From Ferroglobus placidus DSM 10642 (lineage in GTDB: Archaea; Halobacteriota; Archaeoglobi; Archaeoglobales; Archaeoglobaceae): 32,000 nt of DNA. This document shows, piece by piece, positions 4,107-26,696 of the stretch; the first letter of the stretch is position 1; every line of letters begins with the position of its first letter. Location of the stretch: NCBI RefSeq assembly GCF_000025505.1, contig NC_013849.1, positions 1,860,001-1,892,000 on the forward strand. The letters run 5' to 3'. The notes under the pieces are model-generated. The model made no database searches. It worked only from the letters and a program-made list of their open reading frames with translations, and was not told the origin of the DNA. A program made the translations under genes and the position numbers.

Positions 4107-4107
4107 T

Positions 4108-5808: not shown

Positions 5809-5832
5809 TAAATTCTCCTCGTAGTTTTATGA

Positions 5833-7899: not shown

Positions 7900-7916
7900 A
7901 CTCAAAAAACTTGGAT

Positions 7917-8618
7917 ATGAACGTAATTCTCGTAGGTCCGGCTGGAAGCGGGAAATCTACGTTTGCCAAGGAGTTCTCCACTTATTTGAGGGAAGGCGGA
8001 TATGATGTTAAGGTTGTCAATCTCGACCCAGCCACAGATCCGATCTACGAAGCTGACAGAAATTTGAGGGATTTTATTAAAACTGAGGAAGTTATGAAAA
8101 AATTCAAACTCGGAATAAACGGAGCGTTGATTAAATCGATGGAGATGTCGTTGGAAATTCTGGATGAAGTTATAGTCGAAGGAGAATACGTGATATACGA
8201 CACCCCCGGACAGATGGAGCTTTTTCTTTATACGGATTTCGGAGAAAAGCTTGTGGAAAAATTGAATGGCTTTACGACCGGGTTATTTTTGATAGATTCT
8301 TGCCTTGCAACGAGTCACGAGAAGTTTGCCGCATGCGTAGCTCAGGCTGTTGTTGTCACGCTGAGGTTTTCAATTCCATTCGTTACCATCTTCACGAAGT
8401 CGGACTTATGCGAAGCTTTAAGTTTGAAGGACGTTAAGAAAAGAATTTCCGAAAGCGAAGGAATGGTTGCCGAAGTTCTCGAGAACTTTTTGAGGTTCGT
8501 GGACGTGACGACTCTCCCTCAGAGAATAGTCAGAATTTCGAGCAAGGATAGAAGGGGATTTGACGAGGTTTTCGGAGTTATACACGAGATATTCTGCTCA
8601 TGCGGAGATATCAGCTAA
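7917..8618 (+). CDS. GPN-loop GTPase family protein (PAB0955-like), with GIN in place of GPN
   Basis: P-loop 'GPAGSGKST', 'VNLDPA', 'DTPGQMELF' and 'TKSD' are present. ATG at 7917 is preferred over the TTG at 7911. Confidence 0.8.
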   Translation: MNVILVGPAGSGKSTFAKEFSTYLREGGYDVKVVNLDPATDPIYEADRNLRDFIKTEEVMKKFKLGINGALIKSMEMSLEILDEVIVEGEYVIYDTPGQMELFLYTDFGEKLVEKLNGFTTGLFLIDSCLATSHEKFAACVAQAVVVTLRFSIPFVTIFTKSDLCEALSLKDVKKRISESEGMVAEVLENFLRFVDVTTLPQRIVRISSKDRRGFDEVFGVIHEIFCSCGDIS

Positions 8619-10019
8619 AACCTTCTCGTACTCTCTCTTAAGCCTTTCCTTCTTGTAACCAATACTTAAATCGTCCCAGGGCAATTCTTCGTCAACTTCG
8701 AAAGCTTCCAAGAATTTATCAAGCTTGAGCTTGAAAATCAAGTTGAAATTCGGCTTGAGCTCTATGAGCCTCGAAACTCTCTCGTCTCCCCTCGATAGCA
8801 CGGTTTGAATCGCAAACTTCCTAACGCTCTCCACGCTAACCTCCGCAAACTTCCTCATTTTCTCGAGAAACTTCGCTTTCTCCTCAAGAGATTTTATATT
8901 CTCCTTAACGTCCTTTCCTATTTCCCCTCCGTAGGGAAGCCATTGAAAAGGAGTGTGGGGCTTCGGAACGAGAGGATTAACTGAAACTGCCACTTTCAAA
9001 TTCATGCTTCTTATTCTTTCCACGAGAGAAACGATCTCTTCGAGATCTTCAAGCTTTTCTCCCGGCAAACCTATCATGAAGTAAAGCTTCACCTTCTCTA
9101 TCCCAGCCTCTTTCGCCAATTTTGCAGCGACTATTATTTCTTCGTTGCTAATATCTTTCTTTATCACCTCCCTAAGCCTCTCGCTCGTCTCCGGAGCGAA
9201 CGTTAAGCTTTTCAACCCGCTTTTCACGAGGATTTTTAGAACCTCTTCGCTTATCTTATCGGCTCTGAGAGAAGAAGGAGAAATTTGGTAGCCAAGCGAA
9301 TAAAGCTCCGAGATTATCTCTTCGAACTTCGGATGGTCTGAAGGAGAAGGAGAGATCAAAGCAATCTTATCAACGATCTTTCTGTTTTCTCTCGCTATCT
9401 CGACTATCTCCTCAACCTTTCTCCACCTCGCCGGAGCGTAGAGCTGCCTTACTATGCAGAATCTGCAGGATCTCGGACAACCTCTCCCTACTTCTATGTG
9501 CAAAGCCCTGCCGTAGGCTCCTTCCCCAATTACCTGCATTTTCTGATGCTCTGGAAGCTCTCTCCAGAGAAACCTTCTCTTGTTTTTCGGATAAAGCTCA
9601 AGCTTTCCCTCGACGATATCCAAAACGAGGTTGTCAGCCTCTCCTATAAAAAGACCGTCGAAGAACTTCGCTATGGGCTTCGGATTTTCCGTAACGCAAG
9701 GACCACCGGCTATTTTCACCCCGGAAAAGTTACTCTTCTTTATTATTTGTACGGCGTTGAAGTAGTCCTCTTCATACTGCAACGTAAACAAAGCCACATC
9801 GAAGCTTTTCAGCTCGCTTCCGCTTTCTACACTTCTTAATCCTTCGAAAACGTCTGTAAAAAATCTCTCAGCGATGAAATCTTCTGAGGAATTTATTTCG
9901 TAATAAAGCCTTTGAACTGCCAAGCTCGATACGCCGCCGACGTATCTGTTCGGGTAAACTATGGCGACTCTCTTTAATCCCTTCTTCCAGCTTTTTAAAA
10001 ATGGGTTGAATTCCGTCAT
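8598..10019 (-). CDS. Radical SAM protein with a B12-binding-like N-terminal domain (473 aa)
   Basis: CxxxCxxC cluster motif '[11 protein letters not shown]' sits in a TIM-barrel-sized core. The N-terminal Rossmann-like region precedes it. The start overlaps the ilvN stop (ATGA). Confidence 0.85.
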
Positions 10020-10507
10020 TCGAGGGCTTTGCTTCCCCTCTGCATCGCTATTTTTCCGGTTCTTGCAACCTCTTTTATTCCGTACTGCCTCATCAGGTCT
10101 ATGAAAGCATTTATCTTGTCCTCATCTCCCGTGATTTCAATTATAAAGCTGTCTCTCGCAACGTCCACTATTCTCCCCCTGAAGATGTTCGCTATCTCGA
10201 TTATCTCCCCTCTCGTTTGAGGAGTGGCGTTGACCTTAACTAAAGCGAGCTCTCTCTCAACGGAATTTTTCGTGACGTCGCTCACCTTCAGAACCTCTAT
10301 CAGCTTGTTCAGCTGCTTGGTAACTTGCTCTATTGTCTTATCATCCCCGTCGACAACTATCGTCATTCTCGAAATTTGAGGCTTCTCGGTTATTCCCACA
10401 GCTAAGCTTTCTATGTTGAATCCCCTCCTCCTGAAGAGTCCCGCAACCTTAGCCAGAACTCCCGGCTTGTTTTCAACTAAAGCAGCCAGGGTGTGCCTCA
10501 TGATCAC
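10016..10507 (-). CDS. ilvN: Acetolactate synthase small (regulatory) subunit
   Basis: N-terminal ACT domain '[31 protein letters not shown]'. It is 163 aa and has an ATGA overlap with ilvB. Confidence 0.93.
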
Positions 10508-12168
10508 ACCTCCTCATCGATGATCTCGTTCAAAGCAGCTCCGGCGGGAACCATCGGATAAACGTTCTCAAGCCTGTCAACTCTGAAGTCGACGACGACT
10601 GGAGCGTCAATACTCAAAGCTTCCTTGATAGCATCTTCAACCTCGCTTTCCCTTTCAACCGTCATTCCAACAGCCCCAAACCCTTCAGCAATCTTTTCAA
10701 AACTCATCTCTTTGCAGAGCAAACAGGTTTGAGAGTACCTTTCGTCGTAGAACAGCTGCTGCCACTGCCTAACCATTCCGAGGAATGCGTTGTTCAAAAT
10801 GAAGACTTTCACGTCAATGCCGTAGTCGACGCAGGTGGCAAGCTCCTGAATGTTCATGAGAAAGCTTCCGTCTCCAGCTATGTCAACGACTGTTTTGTCT
10901 GGAAAAGCCGTCTTAACTCCTATCGCCGCCGGAAATCCAAATCCCATAGTTCCCAATCCGCCTGATGTTATGAATTGCCTCGGATACTTAACTTTGAAGT
11001 ACTGAGCAGCCCACATTTGATTCTGCCCGACTTCAGTCGTTACTATCGCATCCGGAGCTAATTCGTAAAGCTTTTCTATAACGTACTGCGGCTTGAGCTT
11101 TCCGTCTCTTTTATACCTCAGCGGATATTTCCTCCTCCACTCGTTCACCTTGTCCTCCCACTCCTTCCTTCTCTTGTACTGAATGTGCTTTATCAGCTCC
11201 CTCAAAACGAGCTTAGCGTCTCCAACTATTGGCACGTCAACCCTAACGTTCTTTCCGATTTCAGCTGGATCGATGTCTATGTGGATTATCTTAGCATTCG
11301 GAGCGAAGCTGCTGACCTTGCCGGTTGTTCTGTCGGAAAATCTCACTCCGACGGCGATTATCAAATCGGATTCCTGAACAGCATAGTTAGCATACTTAGC
11401 TCCGTGCATTCCTATGAATCCCAAGCTTAACGGGTGAGTTTCGGGAATGGCTCCCTTCCCCATCAAACTCGTGACGACGAAAGCCGGAATAGTTTCAGCT
11501 AATTTAACGAGCTCTTCTGAAGCGTTGGAAAGGATAACTCCTCCTCCGGCGAGAATTATCGGTCTCTCAGCCTTCATTATCAGCTCTGCAGCTCTCTTTA
11601 TCTGTCTTGGATGTCCAGCATATTTTGGCTTGTATCCGGGGAGGTCAACTTTTTCCGGATAATCGAACTCTATATCCGCTATGGTAACATCCTTCGGTAA
11701 ATCTATTAAAACAGGTCCCGGTCTTCCGGTTCTGGCTATGTAGAAAGCCTCTTTGATTATCCTGAGAAGTTCTTTTTCGTCGGTGACGAGGTAGTTATGC
11801 TTAGTGATCGGCATGGTTATTCCGGTTATATCCGCTTCCTGAAAAGCGTCGTTGCCTATCAAGCTCCTCGGAACTTGCCCCGTCATAACTACAACCGGTG
11901 AAGAGTCCATGTAGGCTGTTGCAATTCCAGTAACGGTGTTCGTTGCTCCCGGTCCCGAGGTTGCGAAAGCGACTCCGACTCTGCCAGTAGCTCTCGCGTA
12001 ACCGTCTGCTGCGTGAACCGCTGCTTGCTCGTGCCTCGTGAGAATGTGCACTATCTCCGAATCGAAGAGAGCATCGTACACTTCGATTATCGCTCCTCCG
12101 GGTATTCCGAAAATGTGCTTCACACCTTCCTTCTCCAAGGCCTTGACAATAGCGTCGGCAGCCCTCAT
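10504..12168 (-). CDS. ilvB: Acetolactate synthase large (catalytic) subunit, ThDP-dependent
   Basis: 'GIPGG' N-terminus and the ThDP motif '[14 protein letters not shown]...NN' are present, with '[14 protein letters not shown]'. ATG at 12168 is preferred over the upstream TTG at 12183. Confidence 0.93.
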
Positions 12169-12646
12169 AAAAACCACCCACAACTACCTGAGAAAAATTA
12201 GCATACTACTACAACAGGAAGGTTCAACATTGTTTGCATCGCCTTCTCCTTCGAAAGGGGAATTTAAATAGTTTTTGGTTTTAGAGAACGTGTCCAGAAA
12301 TAACCTCCCGAGATAAGACTGCAAAAATATTACTATCGAATTAAACTCCTTCATGCTCAAGAGGTTGAATACTCCCATCTACGACGTCGAACTGATTCTG
12401 AAATTCCTTCACGTGATATTGGCATCGCTGAAGATTGATGATAGATTTGAAAAGTGTACAGAAAAGCTGAAAACTTCGGAGATCTAAGCGTTGAATTCGG
12501 CGAGAGGTTGAATTGGCAGACTTGTAACAATAACAGCAATCGATAAACCCCTAACCCGAACACACGACCCCTGAATCCAGTTAGGATGTCGATCTCGAAG
12601 AATGAGAGCGAAAAGCTTTTATTCATCAAATTAAATGCATTAAAAA

Positions 12647-13279
12647 ATGATCCTCGTTGGAGAAGGAGAAGGTTTAGAAACTCCCGACTCTTTTATGAAG
12701 TGTAAGGTTTCGGATAAAGTATTAAATCTTCTCGGAGACTACCGCTACCTGACAAAAGGTTACTATGTCTCTCTCCACGCCGAAGAAAATGGTTGTGAGG
12801 TTTTTCCACCAGTTAAGAATGCGCTCGATGCATACAGAGCTCCTTTGTTTACGAACATGCTTCGAAAACTCGGGTTCGAAACTCCAGACTTTGAAGTGGT
12901 TTGCAAGCCAAAACCGGAGAAGTGCGTTTTGCTCCCCTTAAATCCATTCTCCAAAAATTCGGTCAGGCTCGTGAAAAACGATTATCAGTATCTAAAAGCG
13001 TTCAGGAGATTGAGCATTAATAATCGCTACCCGGTTGTGCAGGTTAGAGTCGAAAGATTTGAAAAACTGAAAATACACCTAACAAAAGCTGATAAAGACG
13101 AATACAGCTTTATATCCGAAAGATTGTTTAGGACTTTGAAAATTCCACTCGGCAAAGTTTTCGTTGATGTAAGTGATGGAAAACCTAAACCTTTTTACTT
13201 CGCACCGCTTGAGAGGGGTGAGATAGACCTCGATATCATATTCGAGGTTCTGAATAATGAGGATAGCCTGTTTTGCTGA
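12647..13279 (+). CDS. RLAN (RimK-like ATP-grasp N-terminal) domain protein, stand-alone (210 aa)
   Basis: 'YRYLTKGYYVSLHAEENGCEVFPPV' matches my memory of the RLAN signature (Y..GYYvSLlAEarG..v.Psv). It overlaps the following ATP-grasp ORF by 23 nt in another frame. Confidence 0.7.
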   Translation: MILVGEGEGLETPDSFMKCKVSDKVLNLLGDYRYLTKGYYVSLHAEENGCEVFPPVKNALDAYRAPLFTNMLRKLGFETPDFEVVCKPKPEKCVLLPLNPFSKNSVRLVKNDYQYLKAFRRLSINNRYPVVQVRVERFEKLKIHLTKADKDEYSFISERLFRTLKIPLGKVFVDVSDGKPKPFYFAPLERGEIDLDIIFEVLNNEDSLFC

Positions 13280-14117
13280 GAGCTACAATTTCAAGTTCAA
13301 ACAGGAAAGGCAGGCACTCGAAATTTTCAAAAGAACTGCTGAAGAGCTCGGACACAGCTTTACAATTCTGGGAAAAGAGATTCTTCAACGTATCGACGAT
13401 TTCGACTCTGTGTTTATCAGAGCAACAACTGATCCTCTCTTCACTTCTTACATTGTCTCAAGGCTCGCTGAAGAGATGGGGAAAAAGGTGATTGACGATT
13501 CGGAAAGCATAAGAATATGTTCAAATAAGGTTGCACTCTACTACAGATTGAAAAAAAGTTCAGTTCCAACGCCAAAAACGATACCTTTCTTCGGGGACTT
13601 TGAAAATCTTGAAAGCTATGCTGAAGAGCTGGGATATCCAGTTGTCGTGAAGAGACCGAACTCAAGGTTTTCTCTTTACGTGGAGAAGGCAAATAATTAT
13701 TACGAGCTCATTAAGGTTGTGAAAAAGTACATGAGGAGAAGTAAGGCTTTAATTTTGCAAGAATACGTGCCAACAGCATTCGATTGGCGTATTGGGGTGC
13801 TTGGGAGAGAAGTTATCTACGCATGCAAGTATTTCATGCCCAAAGGCGGGTGGAAGATTACAGATTACATCGGCGGAAAGAAAGTCTGGGGAAATGTGAA
13901 GGCAGTTAGGGTTGAAAATCTGCCATCAAAACTTAGAAAAATTGCTGTAATGGCTGCAAAAAGCGTCGGAAACGGACTTTACGGTGTAGATGTAAAAGAA
14001 ATTAACGGAAATTACTACGTCATCGAGGTAAACGACAATCCAACGATAATGCACGGCGATGAGGATGCGAAAAATCCTGAGCTTTACGAGAAGATTATTC
14101 TCGCGCTGACCAGCTGA
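13257..14117 (+). CDS. RimK-like ATP-grasp ligase (286 aa)
   Basis: ATP-grasp motifs 'YPVVVKRPNSRFSLYV', 'LILQEYVP..FDWRIGVLG' and 'LYGVDVKEINGNYYVIEVNDNP' are present. Confidence 0.85.
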   Translation: MRIACFAESYNFKFKQERQALEIFKRTAEELGHSFTILGKEILQRIDDFDSVFIRATTDPLFTSYIVSRLAEEMGKKVIDDSESIRICSNKVALYYRLKKSSVPTPKTIPFFGDFENLESYAEELGYPVVVKRPNSRFSLYVEKANNYYELIKVVKKYMRRSKALILQEYVPTAFDWRIGVLGREVIYACKYFMPKGGWKITDYIGGKKVWGNVKAVRVENLPSKLRKIAVMAAKSVGNGLYGVDVKEINGNYYVIEVNDNPTIMHGDEDAKNPELYEKIILALTS

Positions 14118-14215
14118 GCCCTCGGTTTCATTCCTGGTGAGCGGGAAAGTTCTCCGATTATGATTTGCTGATTAGTAAACCGATTTATGGAGAGTTCTAC
14201 ATTAAATTCCTGAGA

Positions 14216-14378
14216 ATGTTGGAAAAAGCAAGGTTGTGGCTTGAGAGCTAAGGCTGATTTGAAATCCGCTGAAGTGCTGATGGACATAGTTCCTGCAGAT
14301 AGCATCTACCACAGTCAGCAGGCTGTGGAGAAGGCAATTAAGGCAGCACTGGTTTTGAAGGGAATTGATGTCAAATAG
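14216..14378 (+). pseudogene. Decayed HEPN-domain gene (frameshifted and 3'-truncated)
   Basis: One frame gives 'MLEKARLWLES*' (14216-14251). A shifted frame continues 'AKADLKSAEVLMDIVPADSIYHSQQAVEKAIKAALVLKGIDVK*' (14247-14378). Together these match the N-terminal half of the HEPN consensus (A..dL..Ae.L......a.fh.qQA.EKAlKA.L). The Rx4-6H half is missing. Confidence 0.55.
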
Positions 14379-14390
14379 GCCCAATAAACC

Positions 14391-14400
14391 TTATAAATTA
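14391..14400 (+). promoter_or_regulatory. TATA box (TTATAAATTA) for a leaderless transcript of the 14419 ORF
   Basis: The TATA centre lies about 25 nt upstream of the ATG at 14419. There is no SD between them. Confidence 0.45.
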
Positions 14401-14418
14401 TAGCTTCGGAATGTAGCT

Positions 14419-15498
14419 ATGTGTAAAAATAGAATTTTAAAAGATTATTCAAAGCGCATAAGACGCTTCAAAGAACTAATCAAAAAAAGTATTTGGATTA
14501 TTGGGGCCATCCTTGTATTTGTATTAACTTTTATATTTCCAACAAACATAAACGTCAAAACGGACGACGTTAGATATCTCTTGAGTGCATCTGCCCAAGT
14601 TGAAGCTACCATTATTGCAATATTCATCTCTATACTTTTGGTTGCCATCCAGCTTACTTTGAAAGATTATTCGGAAATAGTTTTAGATGTTTATCGTAAA
14701 AACAAAAGTTTTTGGTCTATTTTAATCCTTTATTTAGTTTCAATTGTTATACTATTGATTTCACTGGCAAATGTTGAAGCTTTAACGAATTGGATTAAAA
14801 TTTATATATTTTTAGTGGTAATAAATTTATTAATATTGTTACCGTATATTATTTTGTATACATTTGAATTACTTAGCCCTCAAAAAATTGCGGAAAAATT
14901 TACGAACATGTATAAAATTAGTTATAATAATGGAGACAATTTTAATATTTTGAGAAAATATATAGAAATTTCAGAAAAAAGTATCGATTCCCATAACGTC
15001 AAGTTTGGTGTCAGCATATTAGATAAGATTAGAAAAAGTGTATCAGAAGAGCTAAAAGTAATAAATTACGAACTGATAAAAGATATTTCAAAGCTTGAAG
15101 ACATCTTGCTTTTTTTCGAAAATATCTCTTTTTGGTTGCGAGCTCTCACACTTTACATAATTGACCGTTACGAACACCGTATAATAACTAAGAACGAAAG
15201 TGACTGGCTAATGAATATTATCATTAAGATTTTACGTGATCTATGGGCTAACTTGGTAATTGGCCTGTATCCGTTTTATTCCAATCAAGAAACTGAAGAA
15301 AAACTTGAACGTTGTTTAAATCGATGCTTAATCGAATTAGAGACGATAGTAGGGAAACTCAAAACCGTTCCAGATTTAGAGGATAATTTGAGTAATTTTC
15401 TGAACGTTATACCATTTAGACAAATTGAAGACTTAGCAAGTAAAAATAAGAAACTAGAACACATTGCCGAACGTGTCAAAAAGTTAAAAAGCCCGTAA
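14419..15498 (+). CDS. Low-GC membrane protein: four N-terminal TM helices plus a ~200-aa helical soluble domain (359 aa), function unknown
   Basis: Hydrophobic segments are 'IWIIGAILVFVLTFIF', 'ATIIAIFISILLVAIQL', 'FWSILILYLVSIVILLISL' and 'IYIFLVVINLLILLPYIILY'. The ORF is long and uninterrupted despite about 20-35% G+C (hand counts on three 60-nt lines). It may be DUF2254-like, but I am not sure. Confidence 0.7.
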   Translation: MCKNRILKDYSKRIRRFKELIKKSIWIIGAILVFVLTFIFPTNINVKTDDVRYLLSASAQVEATIIAIFISILLVAIQLTLKDYSEIVLDVYRKNKSFWSILILYLVSIVILLISLANVEALTNWIKIYIFLVVINLLILLPYIILYTFELLSPQKIAEKFTNMYKISYNNGDNFNILRKYIEISEKSIDSHNVKFGVSILDKIRKSVSEELKVINYELIKDISKLEDILLFFENISFWLRALTLYIIDRYEHRIITKNESDWLMNIIIKILRDLWANLVIGLYPFYSNQETEEKLERCLNRCLIELETIVGKLKTVPDLEDNLSNFLNVIPFRQIEDLASKNKKLEHIAERVKKLKSP

Positions 15499-15570
15499 CA
15501 GTATCATATATGTTTATTGATGTTCTTTTTAGTTCTAATTGAAAATTTACACTCGAAAATCTAGCAAATG

Positions 15571-16041
15571 CTATATTACTATCTCACCAACCTTCTCAGT
15601 TTCAGGTTCTTCTATCTCCAGAATTCTCCTCAAAGCTCTTTCATCGAGCTCATTAACGAGAGTCTTAATTGCTTCCACAGCCCTTTCGTACTGCTTCCTG
15701 TAAATCTCCTCGTTTTGCCTGAGAAATGTTACAAGTGAGCATATTGACTCCTTTTTGAGATATATCTCAATTTTACCCTCCCTCAGGTCGAAGGTGAAAG
15801 GTCCTGCAACGCAGGTTTCGGGCTTGATGCCGTGAATCAGGCATTTCCTCTCTTTCTCATCAAAAAACACGCAGTAGCCATTTTCCTTCACCTTTGGATG
15901 TGTGTATTCTTCAAAATCGAACAGCTCTAAGCTTATTCCAGAGTCCAGCAGAATTCTCAGCCTCCTCTCAGTAATTGGAGGTTTGGCATCGATGCAGCAC
16001 TTCCCACCACACTCAAAGCAGATTTCGTAAAAGTCAGTCAT
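15571..16041 (-). CDS. YkgJ/UPF0153-family cysteine-cluster protein (CxxCxxCC)
   Basis: 'CFECGGKCC' near the N-terminus, plus 'YCVFFDEKERKCLIHGIKPETCVAGPF'. ATGA overlap with the upstream GCS2 gene. Confidence 0.8.
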   Translation of the reverse strand: MTDFYEICFECGGKCCIDAKPPITERRLRILLDSGISLELFDFEEYTHPKVKENGYCVFFDEKERKCLIHGIKPETCVAGPFTFDLREGKIEIYLKKESICSLVTFLRQNEEIYRKQYERAVEAIKTLVNELDERALRRILEIEEPETEKVGEIVI

Positions 16042-17135
16042 ACATACACCTCATTCCTTTCAAGACATTTTGAAAGTTCCTCGCACACGCCAATAATTTC
16101 TTTTCTACTGATGTCGCCCATGTTCATGAGAATCGATTCACCCAAGCTACCCTCCTTGATTCTCAGCTTGACGATCTTGAGATATTTTTTCTCCTCATCG
16201 TCCGCATTCTCTTTTGCTTTTCTAAATAGTTCCTTCAACTCGGATTTGAGCTCTGCAGTTCCGCTCCTTATCGCACTGTCGAGTTTCTCGATCAGTTTCT
16301 CCCTTGGCAATTCTTCTATTTCAGCCCTTAGAATTGCCCTAATGAAAGCAGTGAGAGCCACGTCGCTCTTTATACACTCCTGCTCGTCCATCACTTTTAT
16401 TTCAAGGCATTTCCTGCTGAACCTAACTATGACTCCCCTCGAATTCACCCACTCACGACAGAGTACATGAGCGTCTCTTTTCCTCAGCTCCTCATAAATT
16501 CGCTCGAGAATTTTCCTGTACTCTCTTAAACTTGCTATCTTTTCTGGAATTACATCGTTGCATATTAGCGGTATTTCCTTCTGATTGATCCTGTAAAAAT
16601 TGAGTCTTGTGTCGATGTAGTACGGCATCCCCTCGCATATTGGTGAGGCAGAGGCGATGGCAGCGATGTATGGAATGAGAATTCTCAACTTGTTGTGAAG
16701 CTCGACAGCCTCTCTTTCCGACGAATACGAGATATTGAGCTGAAAGCTCTGAATGTTAAGCCAGCCATGCTGTTTTATATTGAAAATCCTGTCGTAAGCT
16801 TCGTATATCTTCCTGTCCCTGTGATCCCACACTTTCGCATTTTCGAGCTTTAATAAAGGGTGCATCCCCAGTCCTAAAAGCTTGCAGCCGTCCATAACGC
16901 TAAGAAGTTCCTCAACACCTTCCTGCATTACCTCCTCAAACTCAGAAAGTTCTTCAAAGGGTTTTACGGGTTTTAATTCGATGACGTGCTTTTGCAGTTC
17001 CTTGCCAATAATTACCCTTCCAATGACAGCTTCATTTGCAATCCTTCCTCTTATTTTCCTGATTATTTGATCTGAAATCGGCAAAGGATTGAAGTTTTCA
17101 TCATTTATCGAAAACTCGTGCTCAGGGCCAAGCAT
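16038..17135 (-). CDS. Glutamate-cysteine-ligase family 2 (GCS2 / YbdK-like carboxylate-amine ligase), 365 aa
   Basis: N-terminal 'GPEHEF' metal/ATP motif and 'IELKP' are present. The late 'RGVIVRFSRKCLEIKVMDEQ' resembles the R....lE.R..D signature of the family. Confidence 0.85.
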   Translation of the reverse strand: MLGPEHEFSINDENFNPLPISDQIIRKIRGRIANEAVIGRVIIGKELQKHVIELKPVKPFEELSEFEEVMQEGVEELLSVMDGCKLLGLGMHPLLKLENAKVWDHRDRKIYEAYDRIFNIKQHGWLNIQSFQLNISYSSEREAVELHNKLRILIPYIAAIASASPICEGMPYYIDTRLNFYRINQKEIPLICNDVIPEKIASLREYRKILERIYEELRKRDAHVLCREWVNSRGVIVRFSRKCLEIKVMDEQECIKSDVALTAFIRAILRAEIEELPREKLIEKLDSAIRSGTAELKSELKELFRKAKENADDEEKKYLKIVKLRIKEGSLGESILMNMGDISRKEIIGVCEELSKCLERNEVYV

Positions 17136-17139
17136 AAAA

Positions 17140-18338
17140 TCACCCAGTCAAATAAAGCATGGTTGCACCTATTAGCACAGTCAAAAAAGTTAAAGGCGCA
17201 CCAACTTTAAGGTATTCGAAGAAGTTGACGGTTATTCCATGCTTTTCTGCATTCTCCACAACTATCAAATTTGCAACACTTCCTATAATTGTCAGATTTC
17301 CAGCAAATGTTGAGGACATGGCTAAAATGTACCACAAATTACCGTTTGCAGCCTGAACTGCGGGAAGAACCATCATAACGAACGGAACGTTGCTCACAAG
17401 ATTGCTACCCACTACTGTCAGGAAGCTCATCCAATAATATGACGTAAGACTATCCTCATAGCTCAGCATGGATACCAGATAGTCTCCGTAGGCTTTCTCG
17501 AAACCGTGCATGACTATGAAGAGATTGCAAAAGAGAAGCAGCAAACTCCAGTCAACTCTTTCCAGAGCTTCCTTTGGCTTTATTCCTCCTATTGCAAAAA
17601 TCGTAGCAGCACCAATTAATGCTGCGAGCGAGATAGGATAAACTTCGGTTATAAACAGGAGTAGCACGAGCATGAACACAGCTAAACTTTTAGCAGTCAG
17701 TTTTCTGTCAAGGCTGATCTCAATCTCTACAGCCCTGAAATTATTCAACTCTTTCCTGTAGATTAAATAGATGACCGCATAAGTCACAAAAAGCCCAGTA
17801 ATACTTACCGGAAGCATTTTTGCAGCAAATTCGATGAATCCAACGCCTGACTTCATACCGATAAGCATGTTTTGCGGATTGCCAACAATCGTTGCAGCAC
17901 TTCCGATGTTTGCGGAGGTCGCTAAAGCTATGAGCAAAGGCACGGGATTTATTCCCGACGCCAAAGCCAACCTCACAACGACAGGAGTCACATGAAGACG
18001 CATATCGTGTCGTTTACGAAGAAGGCTGATAGAAAGCCAGCCAAAAAAACTATGGTGAAAAGCAACCTCTTCCCATTTCCAGAAAACCTCATGATTTTGT
18101 AAGCGAGATAATCGAAAAATCCTGCGATGCCAAGATAAGCTGTTAGAACCATCATCCCAAAAAGTAAAATTATCGTGTTGTAGTCTATCGCACTAACAGC
18201 CTCATCGAGGCTCAAAACACCGAAAGCAAGCATTAAAGCGGCTCCGATTGTAGATGCTGCGGGCCTATCTATTCTGCTGTAGATATTTTGCAATGAGATG
18301 AGAGCGTAAGTTAGGATGAATATCAAAAGCTCGATCAA
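17140..18338 (-). pseudogene. ArsB/NhaD-superfamily (YbiR/citrate-transporter-like) permease interrupted by a frameshift at 17988-18003
   Basis: Two overlapping ORFs (17988-18338 and 17140-18003) read '...FFVNDTICVFM*' and 'MRLHVTPVVVRLALASGINP...'. Together they reconstitute the contiguous NDxxxxxxTP(I/V)V and 'GNPQNMLIG' permease core. TTG start at 18338 has a perfect SD, GGAGGTGAT, 4 nt upstream. Confidence 0.8.
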
Positions 18339-18382
18339 AAAATCACCTCCGTAAGGGTTCTAAACGTTTTATCTTAACTTGG

Positions 18383-19276
18383 TTAGCTAATACCCAGCCT
18401 AACCCTGACGTAATCGAAAATCACCTTTGGAACGTTTATGCCGGTTGCTTTTTCGAAGCCTTCAAATCCTGGAGATGAGTTTACCTCACACACCATGTAG
18501 CTATCTCCATTGAAAAGAACGTCCACGCCAGCTATATCCAAGCCCAGCAATTTCGCAGACTCAACAGCAAGCCATTCAACAGCAGGATTTAGATTAAATG
18601 GAGATACTTCCCCTCCTGATGAAAAATTAGCCTTGAACTTCTCTCCCTTAGCTTTTCTGAGCATTGCACCGATTGCTCTTCCACCTACAACAAAAACACG
18701 GATATCCCTCCCTTTACTTGATGAGACAAACTCCTGAATAATCAAATTAACTTTTGGGTCCTTTGAAATTTCCAGTAAACCTAAAAGATCTTCTAGCTGA
18801 GCTCTGTTCTCGCAGAGGAAAACGCCTTTTCCATGGGAGCCGGAGACAGTCTTTACTATTAGGGGATAGTTAAACTCCTTCTCAACTATGTCAACATTCA
18901 GAGGAAACTTGGCAAGCATGGTTTTGGGGATCGGAATGTTATTTGCAGCGAGTATTTGGAGGGTAGCAAGTTTATCCTTAGCGGCTTCTATGCTCTGACT
19001 TGAATTAAGAACGAAAACACCAAGTTTTTCGAGATGTCTTATCACGGCCAAGGCAAAGTAAGTTGTGCCCGCGCCCATTCTTGGAATCAGACAGTCCGGC
19101 AAGTCCGATGGACTGCCGTTGAAAAATAAACTCCTCCCCTCCCTCGTAACGATTATATCAAATTCTTCTGGTGCAACCAATTGAAGCTCAATTCCCATCT
19201 TCTCCGCTTCTTCTTGAAAACGCCTATTTTCATACGATTTGAAATTCTTCTCTTTCGCGAGAATCCAAACCCTCAT
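18383..19276 (-). CDS. rimK: RimK-family alpha-L-glutamate ligase (ATP-grasp), ~297 aa
   Basis: 'YPLIVKTVSGSHGKGVFL', 'IIQEFV..SKGRDIRVFVVGG' and 'GLDIAGVDVLFNGDSYMVCEVNSSPGFEG' are present. ATG at 19276 (SD-like GGGGAT upstream) is preferred over the ATG at 19297. Confidence 0.88.
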   Translation of the reverse strand: MRVWILAKEKNFKSYENRRFQEEAEKMGIELQLVAPEEFDIIVTREGRSLFFNGSPSDLPDCLIPRMGAGTTYFALAVIRHLEKLGVFVLNSSQSIEAAKDKLATLQILAANNIPIPKTMLAKFPLNVDIVEKEFNYPLIVKTVSGSHGKGVFLCENRAQLEDLLGLLEISKDPKVNLIIQEFVSSSKGRDIRVFVVGGRAIGAMLRKAKGEKFKANFSSGGEVSPFNLNPAVEWLAVESAKLLGLDIAGVDVLFNGDSYMVCEVNSSPGFEGFEKATGINVPKVIFDYVRVRLGIS

Positions 19277-19303
19277 AGCTATCCCCAACCGAGTCATTTT
19301 ATT

Positions 19304-20803
19304 TTAGGTCTGCTTCCGCACGTAATCTTCCACACTATTTTCGAACATTATTTGAGATTCGGAAGGTGTCGGAATTCTCTGAAACGCATCATTTGCAAAC
19401 CAGTTAAAATTAAACCATCTTAGCTGAGGATTCATGTGAGGTAAATGCATGTACATCATGAGGGTTTGAACATCTTTGATAACCGCATGCTTAATCTCGT
19501 TTTTAACAATTTTTTCGCTTAAAGCATTGTCTTCATTGAAGAATCCGATAATCTTCGCAGCTACGATCGAAAGGATTGACGAGATTAAGAAAAGGAAGTC
19601 GTAGGATGCCAGATGAATAGCGGGAATTTCTACATGACCCAAAGAGGATTCAATGTCTATTTTCAGTGTAAAATTTGTTGAGAGGAGGAAAGAGGCAATT
19701 AAACCTCCGCTTATTGATCCCGCAGCTGCGAAAATCGATGCCATCGCGTTGTTTATTGCATAATACGAAGCTGATGAGCCCTTAGGAGTTATCTTCGCGA
19801 TCATGTTCATGAACGCTATAGGTGGAACAGACGAATAGAATCCGTCAAGCATGTAGATTAAAATTAATAGCAATGGTGTGAGTGGATGCTTTTCTGGCAT
19901 CGTTGTGAATGTAAATAGCAAGGCTGCCAAGGAAAACGAAACGAAAGATAGGGTAGCCACAGGCTTATTTCCGAATCTATCCATAATTCCACCAGAAATT
20001 CTAAGGAAGTACATTGAACTTATCTGACTTAGAGACGCGAGCGCAATAACAACCCATACTGGGTATTTTAAAACTGTGATGACGTAAACCGAGAAGAATG
20101 GTAGGGCCATTTCTGAAGCGAATTTCCAGATCGATAGGGCGGAAGTTAGCTTTAAAAAGTTTGAATTCTTAAGCGGTTCTGTTAAGCTTCTTCTTCCTCT
20201 ACACTCAACCTCCACATCGTCAATCCCCTTTATGAAATACACACTTACCATTCCGGCAGCGAATGCTGTCAGAAAGAGAATTGAAAACGTTAGCTCTCCG
20301 ATAGCGTTAAAGAGGACGCTAAATGCTAAAACGATAAACAGCGCTACAAACTTACCGTAGGCAATTCTTTTCGAGTAGAACTCACCCCTGATGTGGTCGG
20401 GAATTAGATCACGCATCCAAGAGCTCCAAGAGACTGCGGAAACTTCTTTGAAAACGTTGTAGATTGCGAAAAACACTACAAATATTAGAACGTTGGAGTG
20501 AAGATTGACGAGTAGTGTAACTCCAATTGCGAGTAGTGAAATTCTGGAGATCACGTTTGCAAGCAGTGAAATTCTTTTTCTGCTGAACCTTTCAGCAATG
20601 AGAGCTGAAGGTATTTGTACTAGCTGAGAAATGTAGGATATAGCCACTACGAAACCTACCAAAACCGGTGGGGCGTTAATCGATGCAAGATATGAACTGA
20701 TTACCGAAACTGTCAACAGTGAAAACATAACCTGCGATGCTATCCCATCCATCAAAAGGTTTCTGAGGCTTTTATTCAAGTTAACTCCGCACTCTTTTCC
20801 CAT
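19304..20803 (-). CDS. Major facilitator superfamily transporter with a ~90-aa cytosolic C-terminal tail
   Basis: About 12 hydrophobic segments, with the MFS-like loop 'AERFSRKRISLL' after TM2. ATG at 20803 (GGGAGAG upstream) is preferred; the track start is the TTG at 20818. The gene ends 7-28 nt before rimK. Confidence 0.8.
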   Translation of the reverse strand: MGKECGVNLNKSLRNLLMDGIASQVMFSLLTVSVISSYLASINAPPVLVGFVVAISYISQLVQIPSALIAERFSRKRISLLANVISRISLLAIGVTLLVNLHSNVLIFVVFFAIYNVFKEVSAVSWSSWMRDLIPDHIRGEFYSKRIAYGKFVALFIVLAFSVLFNAIGELTFSILFLTAFAAGMVSVYFIKGIDDVEVECRGRRSLTEPLKNSNFLKLTSALSIWKFASEMALPFFSVYVITVLKYPVWVVIALASLSQISSMYFLRISGGIMDRFGNKPVATLSFVSFSLAALLFTFTTMPEKHPLTPLLLILIYMLDGFYSSVPPIAFMNMIAKITPKGSSASYYAINNAMASIFAAAGSISGGLIASFLLSTNFTLKIDIESSLGHVEIPAIHLASYDFLFLISSILSIVAAKIIGFFNEDNALSEKIVKNEIKHAVIKDVQTLMMYMHLPHMNPQLRWFNFNWFANDAFQRIPTPSESQIMFENSVEDYVRKQT

Positions 20804-20966
20804 ACGGGTCTCTCCCAAAACATAGCACAGTTTTCAGTATTTAGAACTGGCGGTAAGCAGTTTATCACGAATTTTAAGAATTTTCTACAGGGTAAACTTG
20901 AATACATCGCAAGAGAAAAATAATCATAATATTAATATATAATAAAAAATATTATTTCTTTTCGAA

Positions 20967-21029
20967 CTATTCTTTGGGCTTTTTAGATTTCTTCTCCTTT
21001 TTCTTTCCCTTCTTTTCTTCTTCAGCCAT
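20967..21029 (-). CDS. Candidate small ORF, 20 aa: MAEEEKKGKKKEKKSKKPKE
   Basis: The ATG at 21029 is preceded by SD GGTGA (21036-21040, 6-nt spacer) and a TATA-like ATATATAG (21064-21071). The TAG stop is followed on the minus strand by the T-tract ATATTTTTTATT. The sequence is low-complexity, so a chance ORF remains possible. Confidence 0.3.
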   Translation of the reverse strand: MAEEEKKGKKKEKKSKKPKE

Positions 21030-21157
21030 CCTATTTCACCTTGCTTTTTGTTGCTTCGACGGCTATATATCTCAATATTCTCAAAAACAGAAAGCTTTTT
21101 GTGAATTTAAAGCAACGAAGTTCTGTGCCGAAAAAGAAAGTCGATAAGCATAGCATA

Positions 21158-21751
21158 ATGTGCAAAATAATAGAGTTCGCTGAAAAAAGCGAAGAGATTA
21201 CCGTGTACAACATGGTAAAAAAGCTCAGAGAAATCGGAGTGGACGTTGAAGAAGAAACTGTTAGGAGGACTCTAAAGGAGCTGGAAAAATTTGGCATTTT
21301 GAAGTTTAAAGAAACTTGTATTGGCAGAACGAAAAAGGAGAAAAAAGTGTATACGCTTACCGTTCCACCACACATGGCCAAAAATATGGTTGAGATTCTC
21401 CTCGGCTTAAGAAGCTTTCTGCGAGAAATTACTGCGAGGGTATTTTCGTCGGTAGTTGTGCTGGTGAAAGATAGAAAGTACTCCGTCATGGGATTGGAGG
21501 GGGAACAAGATTTTAAAAAAGCTGTTTTTAATTCTGCGTTACCTCTGCTTACAGAAGCTTATAAACCTGATTTTGCTGTATTTATCTTCCGGGAACTTTC
21601 GGAAGAGCATAGATTCACGACAGTCATCGTGAGCCCATTCGGGAAGTCTATTTACAAAGTTATAGAAACAAAAGAAAAGCTCATAATTGATGAAGTTGGA
21701 CACGAGAAAGAGCTAAACGAATTGCTGGGAAGTCTGAAATTCTTCAATTGA
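21158..21751 (+). CDS. Hypothetical protein with an N-terminal winged-helix-like domain (197 aa from the ATG at 21158)
   Basis: 'ITVYNMVKKLREIGVDVEEETVRRTLKELEKFGILKF' looks like a wHTH recognition helix plus wing. I do not recognise the C-terminal ~110 aa. The track start at 21041 is a TTG with an implausible N-terminus. Confidence 0.55.
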   Translation: MCKIIEFAEKSEEITVYNMVKKLREIGVDVEEETVRRTLKELEKFGILKFKETCIGRTKKEKKVYTLTVPPHMAKNMVEILLGLRSFLREITARVFSSVVVLVKDRKYSVMGLEGEQDFKKAVFNSALPLLTEAYKPDFAVFIFRELSEEHRFTTVIVSPFGKSIYKVIETKEKLIIDEVGHEKELNELLGSLKFFN

Positions 21752-22148
21752 CTACTCTTGGAATTCGTCAAAGTTAATTTTAACAATCCCATAGGATAAA
21801 CCCGACCATTCCAATCTACTTGAAGCTTTGCAAGAACTTGCAAGCCGTAACATTTACATAATTTTACTAGCAAACGATTTCACCAGCCGATTTCACTTTT
21901 CTAAGCCTCCACCTCCATCATGACACCCTTTCATCCCGGAGTCGTGATTCAGGACTTTATCAGGTTTTACAACGAAAGAAACTCATCGGCTTCAATGCAG
22001 TGATAGATGATTGGATATTCGATGAAATTCGACAGAAAATAGACATGAACAATAGGTGAAAATAATTTCGCCCCTCAAAAGACCTCCTACTAAACTCAAA
22101 GATTCAAACATCAGCATCTTATGCATTCAATCCACTATTTCAACTCTT

Positions 22149-22811
22149 CTACGGTTCTATCCCCTTATCCGTTAGTCTGAATTCGCAAAAAGCTCCTTCC
22201 TCTCTCGATCTGTGTTTTATCAGCCTCGCAATTCTCTTTCCGTCGATTTTTTCCAGCGAAATAATGGTTTTCGAGAGGTGGTCAACGCTCGGTCCGCCCA
22301 AAGGCTTGTCTATTCCGTTTCTTACATCTGTGAACATCTGATTCGTGAAAACTACCGCTAAATCGTGTTTTCTCGCTACTCCAAGCAGAAGCGTTAGCTG
22401 TGAAATCAGCTCTCTCTTCGCTTTTATCTGCTTTTCCTCATCCTCCAGCTCGCTTCTGTAGAGAGAGGTTAGGGAGTCTATGACGACGAGAACGATCTCC
22501 TCTCTCTCGCACAACTTCGCGACTTCCCTAACTGCAACGCTTTGCATTTTAAAATCGTAAACGTCGTAGATGTAAACGTCCTTTAGAACGCTTTTGTCCT
22601 CGAAAATCTGATTTACTCTCTCGGGAGACAAGCCTTCAGTGTCGATGTAAACAGCTTTTCCAAATCTTTTGACGGTGTTGTATGTAAGCATGAGGCAGAG
22701 GGAAGTTTTTCCGCTCCCGCTAACTCCGTAGATTTGGGTTAGCGTTCCTGTTTCAACCCCTCCTCCGAGGAGCGAGTCGATGCAGGAGCTTCCGGTAGGG
22801 AGCTTCTTCAT
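22149..22811 (-). CDS. radB: DNA repair and recombination protein RadB
   Basis: RecA-core only, 220 aa. Walker A 'GVSGSGKTS', Walker B 'VLVVIDS', and N-terminal 'LPTGSSCIDSLLGGGVETG'. Confidence 0.92.
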   Translation of the reverse strand: MKKLPTGSSCIDSLLGGGVETGTLTQIYGVSGSGKTSLCLMLTYNTVKRFGKAVYIDTEGLSPERVNQIFEDKSVLKDVYIYDVYDFKMQSVAVREVAKLCEREEIVLVVIDSLTSLYRSELEDEEKQIKAKRELISQLTLLLGVARKHDLAVVFTNQMFTDVRNGIDKPLGGPSVDHLSKTIISLEKIDGKRIARLIKHRSREEGAFCEFRLTDKGIEP

Positions 22812-23950
22812 TCCATCACCTTCAGTATTCTTCTATAAACCTCTTCCGGAGACAAACTTTCGGCTTCGCAAATTCTTTTAACATCTTCGTACTCGGGTTT
22901 AACTCTGTAATCGGACACCTTTACCCTAACAACGTATTCCTTTTCGTTAATTTTCACTTTAACCTCTCTAACTTCCCTGTAGGCTTTTAACCTGTGCTCC
23001 ACGGGAACTATCCTGACTCCGAGGGAGCCTGTTAACTCCATCATCTTTTCAGCTACTTCCTCAGCCTTGTCGTAGCTGACTATTGCCGAAAGCAAGCTTC
23101 CAGCTCTTCCTTTTTTCATGAGAACCGGAGTCACATAAACATCGTGGCTAATCTCCGAAAGCTTCTCGACGGCGTAGCTCAAATACTCCGGAGAGAGATC
23201 GTCGACGTTAGTTTCCACCACAACTATCCTATCGCGAATCTTGGATTCTCCGAGTATTATCCTCAGAACGTTCGGAACCTCTGTATCTTTTTCTCCAGCT
23301 CCGTACAGAATTTTGTTGACTTTAAAAGAGCCTCTAAACGCTCCTTCCGAGAAATGGGCTAAAATTGCGGCTGCCGTAGGAGTTAGAAGTTCCCCTTCTC
23401 CTTCCATGACGATCTCGATTTTCGAATCTGCGAGAATTTCCAAAGTTGCCGGAGCGGGAGACGGATACTTCCCGTGGGAGAATTCCACGAAGCCCACTCC
23501 AACTCTAACCCTGTTCGTGTAAATTCTGTATCCTCTTTCTTTCAGCCTCAAAAAGCCAAGAGTCGAAAGTGTGATGTCGAATATTGCATCATCGCTTCCC
23601 ACCTCGTGGAACTTCGCTTTTTTGTAATCTCTTCCGTGCACCCTTCCCTCAGCTTTAGCAAGCCTTTCAAAAATTTTTATAGCCTCCTTTTTCAACCTCT
23701 CGTCAAGCTTCGAACTCTCAACGAGCCTTACAACTTCCCCGAAAGTTCTTTCCTTAGCTTCGCTCTTCACTCTGACGAGGTTTGACGCTATTCCTCTCTT
23801 GTTTACCCTCTCAATGCTACACTCAACCTCAAGGCTTAACTCTTCAACGATTTTTTCGATGTCCTCCCTCTGAATTACCTCATCATAGAGAGCTCCTATG
23901 ATCATGTTTCCACTTGCACCATTGAAAGCGTCAATTACAGCAATTTTCAT
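22808..23950 (-). CDS. larC: LarC-family nickel insertion protein (DUF111/UPF0272)
   Basis: N-terminus '[21 protein letters not shown]' is the family signature. ATG at 23950 is preferred because the longer 24010 start would overlap cdc48. The stop overlaps the radB start (ATGA). Confidence 0.85.
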
Positions 23951-23993
23951 GCTACCACAAGACTTTTTATCTTCTAAAGATTTTACTTTAATC

Positions 23994-26411: not shown

Positions 26412-26459
26412 TCGAAACGTTTATAGCTTCCTCTTTTTTAAATCGAATGGGTGGTAGTA

Positions 26460-26696
26460 ATGTTCGCAAGGTCTCTTGCAAGAAAGACCGTGCTTCTTTC
26501 CGACGGCACGGTTCTCGGAACTTTGCACAACATAAACGTAGACTTCAGAACAGGTTCGCTGATAAGCTTGGTTGTGAAACCGCAGAACGAAGTAAGCGGA
26601 ATAGAAAAGGTTGACGGCTATTACATAATACCCTTCGATAGTGTGAAATCCATAAGTGACTACATAGTTATCGACAGGAAAAGGCTGAGCAGATGA
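26460..26696 (+). CDS. PRC-barrel domain protein (78 aa)
   Basis: 'VLLSDGTVLGTLHNINVDFRTGSLISLVV...YIIPFDSVKSISDYIVID' fits the PRC beta-barrel pattern. SD GGGTGGT lies 4 nt before the ATG at 26460; the track start is the GTG at 26451. Confidence 0.8.
   Translation: MFARSLARKTVLLSDGTVLGTLHNINVDFRTGSLISLVVKPQNEVSGIEKVDGYYIIPFDSVKSISDYIVIDRKRLSR

Follow-up and report, generated by a model that had tools for sequence, protein, structure and literature searches.

What do the carboxylate-amine ligases encoded side by side in Ferroglobus placidus DSM 10642 make, and do their genes belong together at all? The question is raised by a locus at positions 12647-20818 of a 32,000-nt window of NC_013849.1 (the window denotes the whole stretch of DNA that was analysed, and all coordinates of F. 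placidus refer to it). A plus-strand pair of genes, encoding an RLAN protein and an ATP-grasp ligase, faces a minus-strand operon encoding a GCS2-superfamily ligase, a Cys-rich YkgJ protein, two transporters and a second ATP-grasp ligase of the RimK family. The GCS2 protein is 100% identical to its GenBank entry and the neighbouring proteins correspond to ADC66296 to ADC66302. The open reading frames (ORFs) located by an earlier note on this DNA were all recovered at the same positions by ORF calling, and each of the domains that it had assigned (RLAN, RimK-type ATP-grasp, GCS2, CxxCxxCC, RimK and MFS) was found again using Pfam. Four of the genes constitute a conserved core:

12647..13279, plus strand: RLAN protein of 210 aa, core gene 1 (Pfam PF14401, 52.8 bits against a cut-off of 25)
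13257..14117, plus strand: LysX/ArgX/RimK-like ATP-grasp ligase of 286 aa, core gene 2 (Pfam RimK, 51.8 bits)
16038..17135, minus strand: divergent GCS2-superfamily carboxylate-amine ligase of 365 aa, core gene 3 (Pfam PF04107)
15571..16041, minus strand: YkgJ/CxxCxxCC protein of 156 aa, core gene 4 (Pfam PF03692, 55.3 bits against a cut-off of 23)

These four genes are one functional unit. Their synteny is strong in Archaeoglobi, Methanoregulaceae and Methanotrichaceae as well as in further archaea, and the set persists in hundreds of anaerobic archaeal genomes. Relatives of the GCS2 protein were searched by scanning one genome per species, and 474 of the 494 pattern-matched stretches were found to encode one. 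The proteins of the window were mapped onto the best 80 of these 474 loci (designated below by L followed by a number), which belong to Archaeoglobi, Methanoregulaceae and Methanotrichaceae together with a few bins bearing other labels, and all the ORFs of these loci were clustered. Only four recurrent gene families emerged from the clustering, namely GCS2, RLAN, the plus-strand ATP-grasp and YkgJ. Presence was counted in the 53 related archaeal loci having at least 3 kb on both flanks, referred to as full-flank loci: RLAN is encoded in 48 of them, the ATP-grasp in 46 and YkgJ in 40. This co-occurrence bears out the proposal that a single system comprises both the RLAN/ATP-grasp pair and the GCS2-YkgJ pair. 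A plus-strand ATP-grasp scattered independently of GCS2, named in the earlier note as the observation that would speak against such a system, is clearly not what the 46 shared loci display. A fortuitous clustering of the core is ruled out by its synteny in the 80 genomes and in several other lineages.

The arrangement of the core varies. Gene order is RLAN, ATP-grasp, GCS2, YkgJ in the Archaeoglobaceae and RLAN, ATP-grasp, YkgJ, GCS2 in the Methanoregulaceae and Methanotrichaceae; the genes are usually co-directional and most junctions of the full-flank loci are 4-nt overlaps (-4 nt). The core pairs are divergent in L171-L174 and separated in L175, and the order ATP-grasp, YkgJ, GCS2 is found in L170 and L177. 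The convergent layout of F. placidus is common to Archaeoglobus fulgidus VC-16 and DSM 8774, in which the MFS gene, an intact permease gene, GCS2, YkgJ and a HEPN/nucleotidyltransferase pair are followed by the ATP-grasp and RLAN genes on the other strand. The junction of the convergent halves is occupied by a low-GC membrane protein gene in F. placidus versus the HEPN/nucleotidyltransferase pair, which is toxin-antitoxin-like, in A. fulgidus (L086 10475-11193). The presence of different inserts at one junction indicates that the junction is variable and that the two halves belong together. The tight coupling previously reported within each half was likewise retrieved, as a 23-nt overlap of the RLAN and ATP-grasp genes and a 4-nt gap between the permease and GCS2 genes, both deduced from the coordinates, and as an ATGA overlap, seen in the sequence, between the GCS2 stop and the YkgJ start.

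In the methanogen loci, an ADP-forming acyl-CoA synthetase gene (ATP-grasp_5, CoA_binding_2, Succ_CoA_lig) follows GCS2 in 16 of the 39 full-flank cases, often at a distance of about 25-200 nt (L070 9710-11782). Other genes recurring near the module in these loci, which by sequence appearance encode a U32 peptidase, a triosephosphate isomerase, an HTH/CBS regulator and a thioredoxin-domain protein, were attributed to lineage synteny.

The RLAN protein is encoded by a separate ORF and is not fused to the ATP-grasp; this pairing is kept in 46-48 of the 53 loci. An AlphaFold (AF2) model built from 27 sequences reached a predicted local distance difference test score (pLDDT) of 78.8 and a predicted template-modelling score (pTM) of 0.75. 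When this model was compared to the PDB using Foldseek, the top matches were all ATP-grasp ligases, PsnB (E 2e-7) being followed by Ddl (D-Ala-D-Ala ligase), ArgX and LysX, with TMq values of 0.5-0.56. A profile-profile comparison of RLAN with the ATP-grasp family using hhalign is weak (E 0.0017, probability 15%) and topologically consistent. It pairs residues 36-83 of RLAN with residues 62-109 of the ATP-grasp, a match which reads as the junction of the N-terminal and central domains. Eighteen positions of RLAN are at least 95% identical (D14, Y32, Y39, Y40, E46, P54, D61, P66, G76, L98, N99, F101, Y128, P129, P167, L168, P182 and E192), and they include no Lys, no E-x-N motif and no ATP/Mg ligand set. 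From the ATP-grasp-like fold of the model and the absence of ATP and Mg ligands among the conserved positions, we infer that RLAN is probably an ATP-grasp paralogue that has degenerated and serves as a partner without catalytic activity. Two tandem RLAN ORFs (167 and 216 aa) are present upstream of the ATP-grasp gene in L089 (8001-9283), owing either to a duplication or to an assembly artefact.

The plus-strand ATP-grasp contains the general Pfam RimK domain and scores below every NCBIfam cut-off. The best score is obtained with LysX (90.2 bits, cut-off 275.6), and lower ones with TIGR00768 (84.4 bits, cut-off 143.4), MptN NF040720 (64.8 bits, cut-off 350) and CofF TIGR04443 (55.9 bits, cut-off 300). 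Unlike the second RimK, it has no glutathione-synthase match in NCBIfam. Its nearest solved structure is ArgX (3vpb, E 2.4e-11), LysX being also near. In 63 homologues, conservation reaches at least 95% at K132, Q168, D245, E257 and N259, which align to the ArgX motifs; the protein thus possesses the ATP-binding Lys and the Mg ligands of a catalytically active ATP-grasp.

The GCS2 protein matches its Pfam profile with 203.1 bits (cut-off 21) over positions 2-283 of 291. None of the NCBIfam models of glutamate-cysteine ligase (GCL) or YbdK recognizes it: the best score is 43.7 bits against 176.4 for TIGR02050, and NF010045, NF010041, NF010039, NF010043 and NF010040 yield at most 29 bits, with cut-offs of 332-425. 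The profile of the family retrieves the plant GCL with E 4e-6 and YbdK with 0.007. Judging from these scores, the protein is a distinct branch of its superfamily. Conserved residues include E5-H6-E7, E46, E53, H92, R238, R241 and E245, of which the E-H-E motif and the R238/R241/E245 block align to the plant GCL; because both are conserved, the enzyme should be catalytically active. In addition, three cysteines (C192, C226 and C243) reach at least 95% conservation across 80 sequences, and a fourth, C254, does not vary in an alignment of 15 sequences.

The YkgJ protein is the most conserved of the locus, with 91% identity between F. placidus and A. fulgidus. Eight cysteines are invariant (C8, C11, C15, C16, C57, C67, C77 and C101, i.e. 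a C-x2-C-x3-CC motif and four others), as is a KPETC-AGP-TFD motif. Its AF2 model is of high quality (pLDDT 92.6) and has no fold match in the PDB; NCBIfam returns no match at all. The only biochemical precedent is the flagellin lysine methylase FliB, which holds an oxygen-sensitive [4Fe-4S] cluster by means of a related motif, CX4CX3CC, and likewise has eight conserved cysteines (PMC8598068). The N-terminal CxnCx3CC motif and the eight conserved cysteines shared with FliB make YkgJ a putative Fe-S protein by analogy; it differs in its length of 156 aa, its coupling to a ligase gene and its lack of an NCBIfam match.

The core thus matches the GCS2 superfamily and the RLAN, RimK-like ATP-grasp and CxxCxxCC families, and none of the functionally defined equivalogs (GshA/YbdK, LysX, RimK, CofF, MptN). 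Its closest counterparts are bacterial. A profile search of 1.84 billion representative proteins indicates that RLAN is a small family, with 333 matches at E<=1e-3 and 72 at E<=1e-10; the stand-alone proteins of about 200-240 aa rank best and the fused ones (about 480-500 aa) follow, starting at E about 1e-9. One high-scoring protein, P0290 (1259 aa, E 3e-53 to the RLAN profile), was rejected as a spurious summed match, since its tandem repeats contain 22 copies of a short motif resembling LNLLGDYRY..GYYVSL. In the contig pair L179/L180, which is considered bacterial because it carries formyltransferase and peptide deformylase genes, a fused RLAN-RimK protein (492 aa) is encoded next to a GCS2 protein (425 aa), the two genes overlapping by 4 nt. 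The ATP-grasp parts of the archaeal protein and of this fusion are 40% identical (E 3e-60) and the GCS2 proteins 29% identical (E 7e-40), far closer to each other than either is to any characterised GCL. Such an RLAN-ATP-grasp/GCS2 pairing is said to have been predicted by Iyer, Abhiman, Burroughs and Aravind in 2009 using comparative genomics. The mention of such bacterial neighbourhoods in the earlier note is thereby confirmed, on one contig pair. In L179 (3835-5754), an AMP-forming acetyl-CoA synthetase gene is convergent to the bacterial GCS2 gene.

The archaeal core is accordingly a variant of this pairing, in which both ligases are homologous to the bacterial ones and the coupling by 4-nt overlap is the same, and in which the split RLAN, encoded by a separate overlapping gene, the added YkgJ and the cysteines of GCS2 are new features. 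The bacterial GCS2 of L179/L180 has T, Q, T and S at the positions of the archaeal C192, C226, C243 and C254, and no CxxCxxCC gene was called on these contigs. The cysteines of GCS2 and the Fe-S-type protein hence look like one archaeal addition, which may be a redox gate or a product-modifying step. The Cys-cluster protein had been correctly singled out as the archaeal partner, the bacterial GCS2 being devoid of the corresponding cysteines. A different partner accompanies the RLAN-RimK fusion elsewhere: a GNAT fused to a C39-like peptidase domain in Azospirillum, and a divergently transcribed GNAT in L181. As GCS2 is found in one bacterial locus and GNAT in others, the partner of RLAN-ATP-grasp alternates between two N-acylating enzymes.

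This alternation guides the functional proposal. The syntheses of N-acetylaspartylglutamate (NAAG), N-acetylglutaminylglutamine amide (NAGGN) and glutathione all N-acylate first and then extend, RIMKLA joining N-acetyl-Asp to Glu and Ngg leading to N-acetylglutaminylglutamine. Since the partner alternates between N-acylating enzymes, and by analogy with GshA/GshB, RIMKLA and Ngg, the module is proposed to carry out two ATP-dependent ligations in succession, yielding a small metabolite of the peptide type that is N-gamma-glutamylated, following the logic of glutathione synthesis. This proposal is preferred, at somewhat less than an even chance. In a first step, presumably, the GCS2-type ligase would activate a carboxylate, most probably the gamma-carboxyl of glutamate given the chemistry of the family, and join it to the amino group of a compound X. 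In a second step, the ATP-grasp with its catalytically dead RLAN partner would activate a carboxylate of the intermediate and add an amino compound Y. YkgJ, translationally coupled to GCS2, could be an Fe-S partner gating the ligase by redox state or modifying the product. Because GCS2-YkgJ shares an operon with MFS and SLC13/ArsB-like permease genes in Archaeoglobus and Ferroglobus, transport of a substrate or of the product across the membrane is probable there.

By analogy, the working of the module most resembles two-step glutathione synthesis or the synthesis of N-blocked dipeptides. With the former (GshA and GshB) it shares a glutamine-synthetase-like or GCS-type ligase and an ATP-grasp ligase, which would act in series to give an N-gamma-glutamylated peptide, as well as a strong match to the GCS2 superfamily; it differs in a GCS2 that fails the curated GCL models, in an ATP-grasp that is LysX/RimK-like and not GshB-like, and in the extra pseudo-ATP-grasp (RLAN) and Fe-S-type protein (YkgJ). 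With the latter (RIMKLA/B for NAAG and beta-citrylglutamate; Ngg) it shares a RimK-family ATP-grasp that would extend an N-acylated amino acid, and some bacterial RLAN-RimK proteins are accompanied by a GNAT; its own presumed N-acylating partner is a GCS2 ligase instead of an acetyltransferase.

Several observations weigh against the two-step ligation. No characterised GCL is close to this GCS2 (E 4e-6 for the plant enzyme, all NCBIfam equivalogs failed), so that the acid it activates has to be assumed. Among solved structures, the closest to the ATP-grasp are ArgX and LysX, whose substrate is a carrier protein instead of a small molecule. In several lineages, neighbouring deoxyhypusine-synthase and arginine-decarboxylase genes suggest an amine other than an amino acid. 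Most methanogen loci are devoid of transporters, and the bacterial comparison consists of one GCS2-type contig pair and two GNAT-type loci.

A more specific version, in which anaerobic archaea (Archaeoglobi, Methanoregulaceae, Methanotrichaceae and others) make a new low-molecular-weight peptide of the gamma-glutamyl type, perhaps a thiol or else a conjugate of peptide and polyamine, comparable to glutathione or glutathionylspermidine, by means of a GCS2 that a dedicated Fe-S protein gates or assists and of an RLAN:ATP-grasp heteromer, is conceivable and rather doubtful. The module offers a compact gene set in cultured model archaea, A. fulgidus VC-16 included, in which the core is set apart from local additions, and two structural hypotheses, in which RLAN and the ATP-grasp would form a pseudo-enzyme pair and GCS2 and YkgJ an Fe-S pair. 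Its product, if found, would provide a function for the bacterial RLAN-ATP-grasp/GCS2 operons and for one branch of the large YkgJ family, and could be a new archaeal low-molecular-weight peptide or thiol. To our knowledge, no glutathione-like compound is assigned to Archaeoglobi, Methanothrix or Methanoregula. Little is known about how strictly anaerobic archaea use small molecules in redox and stress chemistry, and Methanothrix and Methanoregula are globally important methane producers.

Among the alternatives, the formation of a polyamine conjugate survives best and is nevertheless unlikely. Agmatine, putrescine, spermidine or a related amine would be joined, giving a gamma-glutamyl-polyamine or glutathionylspermidine-like product, and a tie to the spermidine-consuming deoxyhypusine pathway may exist. 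Genes of the deoxyhypusine-synthase family (DS, PF01916) and of pyruvoyl arginine decarboxylase (ArgDC, PF01862) adjoin the module in four arrangements. They are divergent from RLAN in A. fulgidus (L085-L087 12975-14493) and L005, and located about 2 kb downstream of the module in L015/L016. In L088 (11447-16246) they are part of a single-strand series RLAN-grasp-GCS2-YkgJ-ArgDC-MFS-ArgDC-DS. In L171/L172 (3081-5078), RLAN and the ATP-grasp are followed on the same strand, after an 81-nt gap, by DS2, a divergent DS paralogue keeping the SWGKI motif of the catalytic lysine, beside a canonical DS. No DS or ArgDC gene is found, however, within 8 kb in the methanogen loci L024-L084, nor in the window. 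ArgDC and DS are moreover housekeeping genes that may travel together independently, part of the proximity being perhaps inherited synteny, and the known gamma-glutamylpolyamine synthetases belong to the glutamine-synthetase family and not to GCS2.

A low-molecular-weight thiol would be a special case of the two-step ligation, in which GCS2 yields gamma-Glu-Cys and the ATP-grasp adds a third residue. It is improbable: the GCS2 fails every curated GCL/YbdK model, and the plus-strand ATP-grasp has no glutathione-synthase match in NCBIfam, unlike the unrelated second RimK. The two-ligase logic and the superfamily membership of GCS2 do fit, and the Cys-rich YkgJ and Cys-decorated GCS2 suggest redox sensing. 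Redox-stress genes lie near the module in three lineages, encoding rubrerythrin in A. fulgidus, a flavodiiron protein, hemerythrin and thioredoxin in L173, and AhpC/thioredoxin in L175; such genes are, however, common neighbours in anaerobes. The A. fulgidus GCS2 is probably AF2307, the two being equated by annotation and gene order only, and AF2307, annotated as a glutamate-cysteine ligase, is more than 2-fold up-regulated on CO in A. fulgidus (PMC4543118). This protein had thus been noticed before, under that annotation only, which amends the statement of the earlier note that no archaeal description was known; in the searchable literature, no description of the archaeal four-gene module was found beyond it.

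That the ATP-grasp, and perhaps GCS2, add amino acids to a carboxylate of a protein or peptide, as RimK does with S6, with YkgJ, RLAN or aIF5A as candidate targets, is distinctly unlikely. The idea draws on the nearest solved relatives of the ATP-grasp, since ArgX and LysX acylate the carrier protein LysW, and a Cys-containing protein is encoded alongside the ATP-grasp here as well. The similarity is low (E 2e-11), the LysX cut-off is missed, and the module is devoid of a LysW-like protein with a conserved C-terminal Glu. A scan of the loci for small ORFs (30-95 aa) retrieved only shadow ORFs and no conserved carrier or precursor near the module, and no CxxC...CxxC protein with an acidic end was seen in the loci scanned; a LysW-like carrier or a precursor peptide is consequently ruled out. 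YkgJ, more conserved than any other protein of the locus, displays a conserved acidic EEPETEK segment near its C-terminus, but the extreme C-termini of YkgJ and RLAN vary and the bacterial module has no YkgJ. DS, the modifier of aIF5A, is a recurrent neighbour. The replacement of GCS2 by GNAT in bacteria fits a small-molecule N-acylation better.

Cofactor tailoring, the addition of glutamates to F420, methanopterin or methanofuran, is very improbable in spite of the taxa involved (Archaeoglobi, Methanoregulaceae and Methanotrichaceae, with cofactors common to Archaeoglobi and methanogens), of the inclusion of CofF and MptN in the RimK family and of methanofuran gamma-glutamyl chains having no known assigned ligase beyond MfnD, as the scores of both ATP-grasps fall far short of the CofF and MptN cut-offs, a homologous module resides on the bacterial contig L179/L180, the transporters do not fit, no cofactor-biosynthesis genes are found among the recurrent neighbours by ORF clustering, and no Methanosarcina, Methanococcus or Methanobacteria isolate is present among the best 80 of the 474 genomes. 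A defence system was ruled out, PADLOC yielding no defence-model match for the ligases, RLAN, YkgJ or MFS. A riboswitch that could name the ligand was ruled out as well, no riboswitch or leader RNA being above the Rfam gathering score in the 12000-21800 region of the window.

The second ATP-grasp ligase of the locus does not belong to this system:

18383..19297, minus strand: bacterial-type RimK-family alpha-L-glutamate ligase, outside the conserved system (RimK 160.8 bits; RimK_N, the pre-ATP-grasp domain, 77.3 bits)

The minus-strand operon of five genes described in the earlier note is not conserved as such, since the second RimK stands beside GCS2 only in F. placidus and in no other mapped locus, A. 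fulgidus, L005 and L006 included; on this basis its membership in the system was ruled out. It satisfies TIGR00768 (254.8 bits, cut-off 143.4) and remains below the NCBIfam cut-offs of RimK proper, LysX (177.7 bits, cut-off 275.6), CofF TIGR04443 (109.9 bits, cut-off 300) and MptN NF040720 (171.3 bits, cut-off 350). Its nearest structures are the RimK proteins of Pseudomonas (7qyr, E 3e-53) and E. coli (E 1e-47). These scores and structures rule out the CofF/MptN-type ligase formerly suggested as an alternative; the part of that alternative which stands is a clustering of this RimK particular to the lineage, and the part extending fortuity to the core does not. Eighty metagenome loci (L090-L169) encoding relatives 51-80% identical to it were found to contain no GCS2, YkgJ or RLAN. 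The closest relatives (77-80% identity) stand in unrelated contexts, their contigs also encoding a sigma-54 activator, RecG and a tyrosyl-tRNA synthetase with an S4 domain, and these contigs are therefore bacterial. In 10 of these loci, the RimK relative adjoins a gene encoding a 660-aa fusion of a methyltransferase and a Ddl-like protein. Being absent from the related loci and having its nearest relatives on bacterial contigs, the second RimK is a lineage-specific insertion, best read from these comparisons as a recent bacterium-to-archaeon acquisition placed between the MFS and permease genes. Compared to the S6 poly-glutamate ligase RimK, it is alike in satisfying TIGR00768 and in its nearest structures, and it differs in falling below the RimK equivalog cut-off and in being a bacterial-type gene in an archaeal operon. 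Archaea are not known to possess the bacterial S6, the ribosomal substrate of RimK.

The remaining part of the minus-strand operon comprises recurrent accessory genes and their upstream region:

17140..18338, minus strand: ArsB/CitMHS (SLC13-like) anion permease, disrupted, recurrent accessory (two ORFs, CitMHS profile)
19304..20818, minus strand: MFS transporter, first gene of the operon (Pfam MFS_1, 108 bits)
20900..20965, minus strand: AT-rich stretch upstream of the MFS gene, candidate archaeal promoter region (sequence inspection)

The permease had been described as a single gene, which it is not: it is frameshifted and split into ORFs 17988-18338 (116 aa) and 17140-18003 (287 aa), covering positions 8-103 and 103-329 of the CitMHS profile, respectively. 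With the intact A. fulgidus and L006 orthologues as reference, the break is due to a 2-nt TG insertion in the TGTG at 17989-17992, and the deletion of TG in silico restores the frame, giving FVNDTICVFMTPVVVR. The orthologues are intact in A. fulgidus, L005 and L006. The identical split was called on contigs of independent sequencing runs and is therefore a real feature of the strain. The absence of a GenBank protein accession between GCS2 and RimK suggests that no intact permease gene was called in the original annotation. The split gene could be a pseudogene or a two-piece transporter. In several Archaeoglobi-type loci, the permease gene is intact and directly upstream of GCS2, typically with a 4-nt overlap; in the unrelated L175 it is downstream of GCS2.

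The MFS gene begins at 20803 according to GenBank, giving a protein of 499 aa. In A. fulgidus, L005 and L006, an orthologue of 65-75% identity is located upstream of the permease gene, and in L015/L016 weaker MFS matches occur close to the module. Between the MFS gene and a divergent winged helix-turn-helix (wHTH) gene, a 20-codon ORF (20967-21029, minus strand), MAEEEKKGKKKEKKSKKPKE, is preceded by GGTGA. It is purine-rich, of low complexity, not found upstream of the A. fulgidus MFS gene, and probably no gene. The divergent winged-helix protein (21041-21751, plus strand), which may regulate the MFS operon, displays weak PadR and HTH_12 matches and a marginal PADLOC match to Csa3 (E 8e-4). 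A different wHTH gene, of 83 aa, follows YkgJ in four Archaeoglobaceae loci (L018, L020-L022), and a fifth member of that family is located upstream of the permease in L023.

The convergent halves of the F. placidus locus are separated by a single gene:

14419..15498, plus strand: membrane protein with no assigned function (GC 0.34, no significant Pfam match), a variable spacer outside the conserved system

Among the mapped loci, it has tblastn matches only in those of F. placidus (L002-L004). With an unrelated insert in each genus, this junction resembles an insertion hotspot.

The flanks of the locus (1-12183 and 22149-31655) contain ordinary housekeeping-like genes. The first four listed below were identified using Pfam, the next two from precomputed Pfam labels of the F. 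placidus contig L001, and the last two by their sequence appearance only:

5833-7899: DEAD-box/archaeal-type helicase
8598-10019: radical SAM protein
27482-29167: AMP-binding acyl-CoA ligase
29263-30339: Fe-ADH-like protein
22149-22811: RecA/Rad51-family ATPase
22808-24010: Ni_insertion (PF01969) protein
10016-12183: large and small subunits of acetolactate synthase
23898-26411: Cdc48-type AAA ATPase

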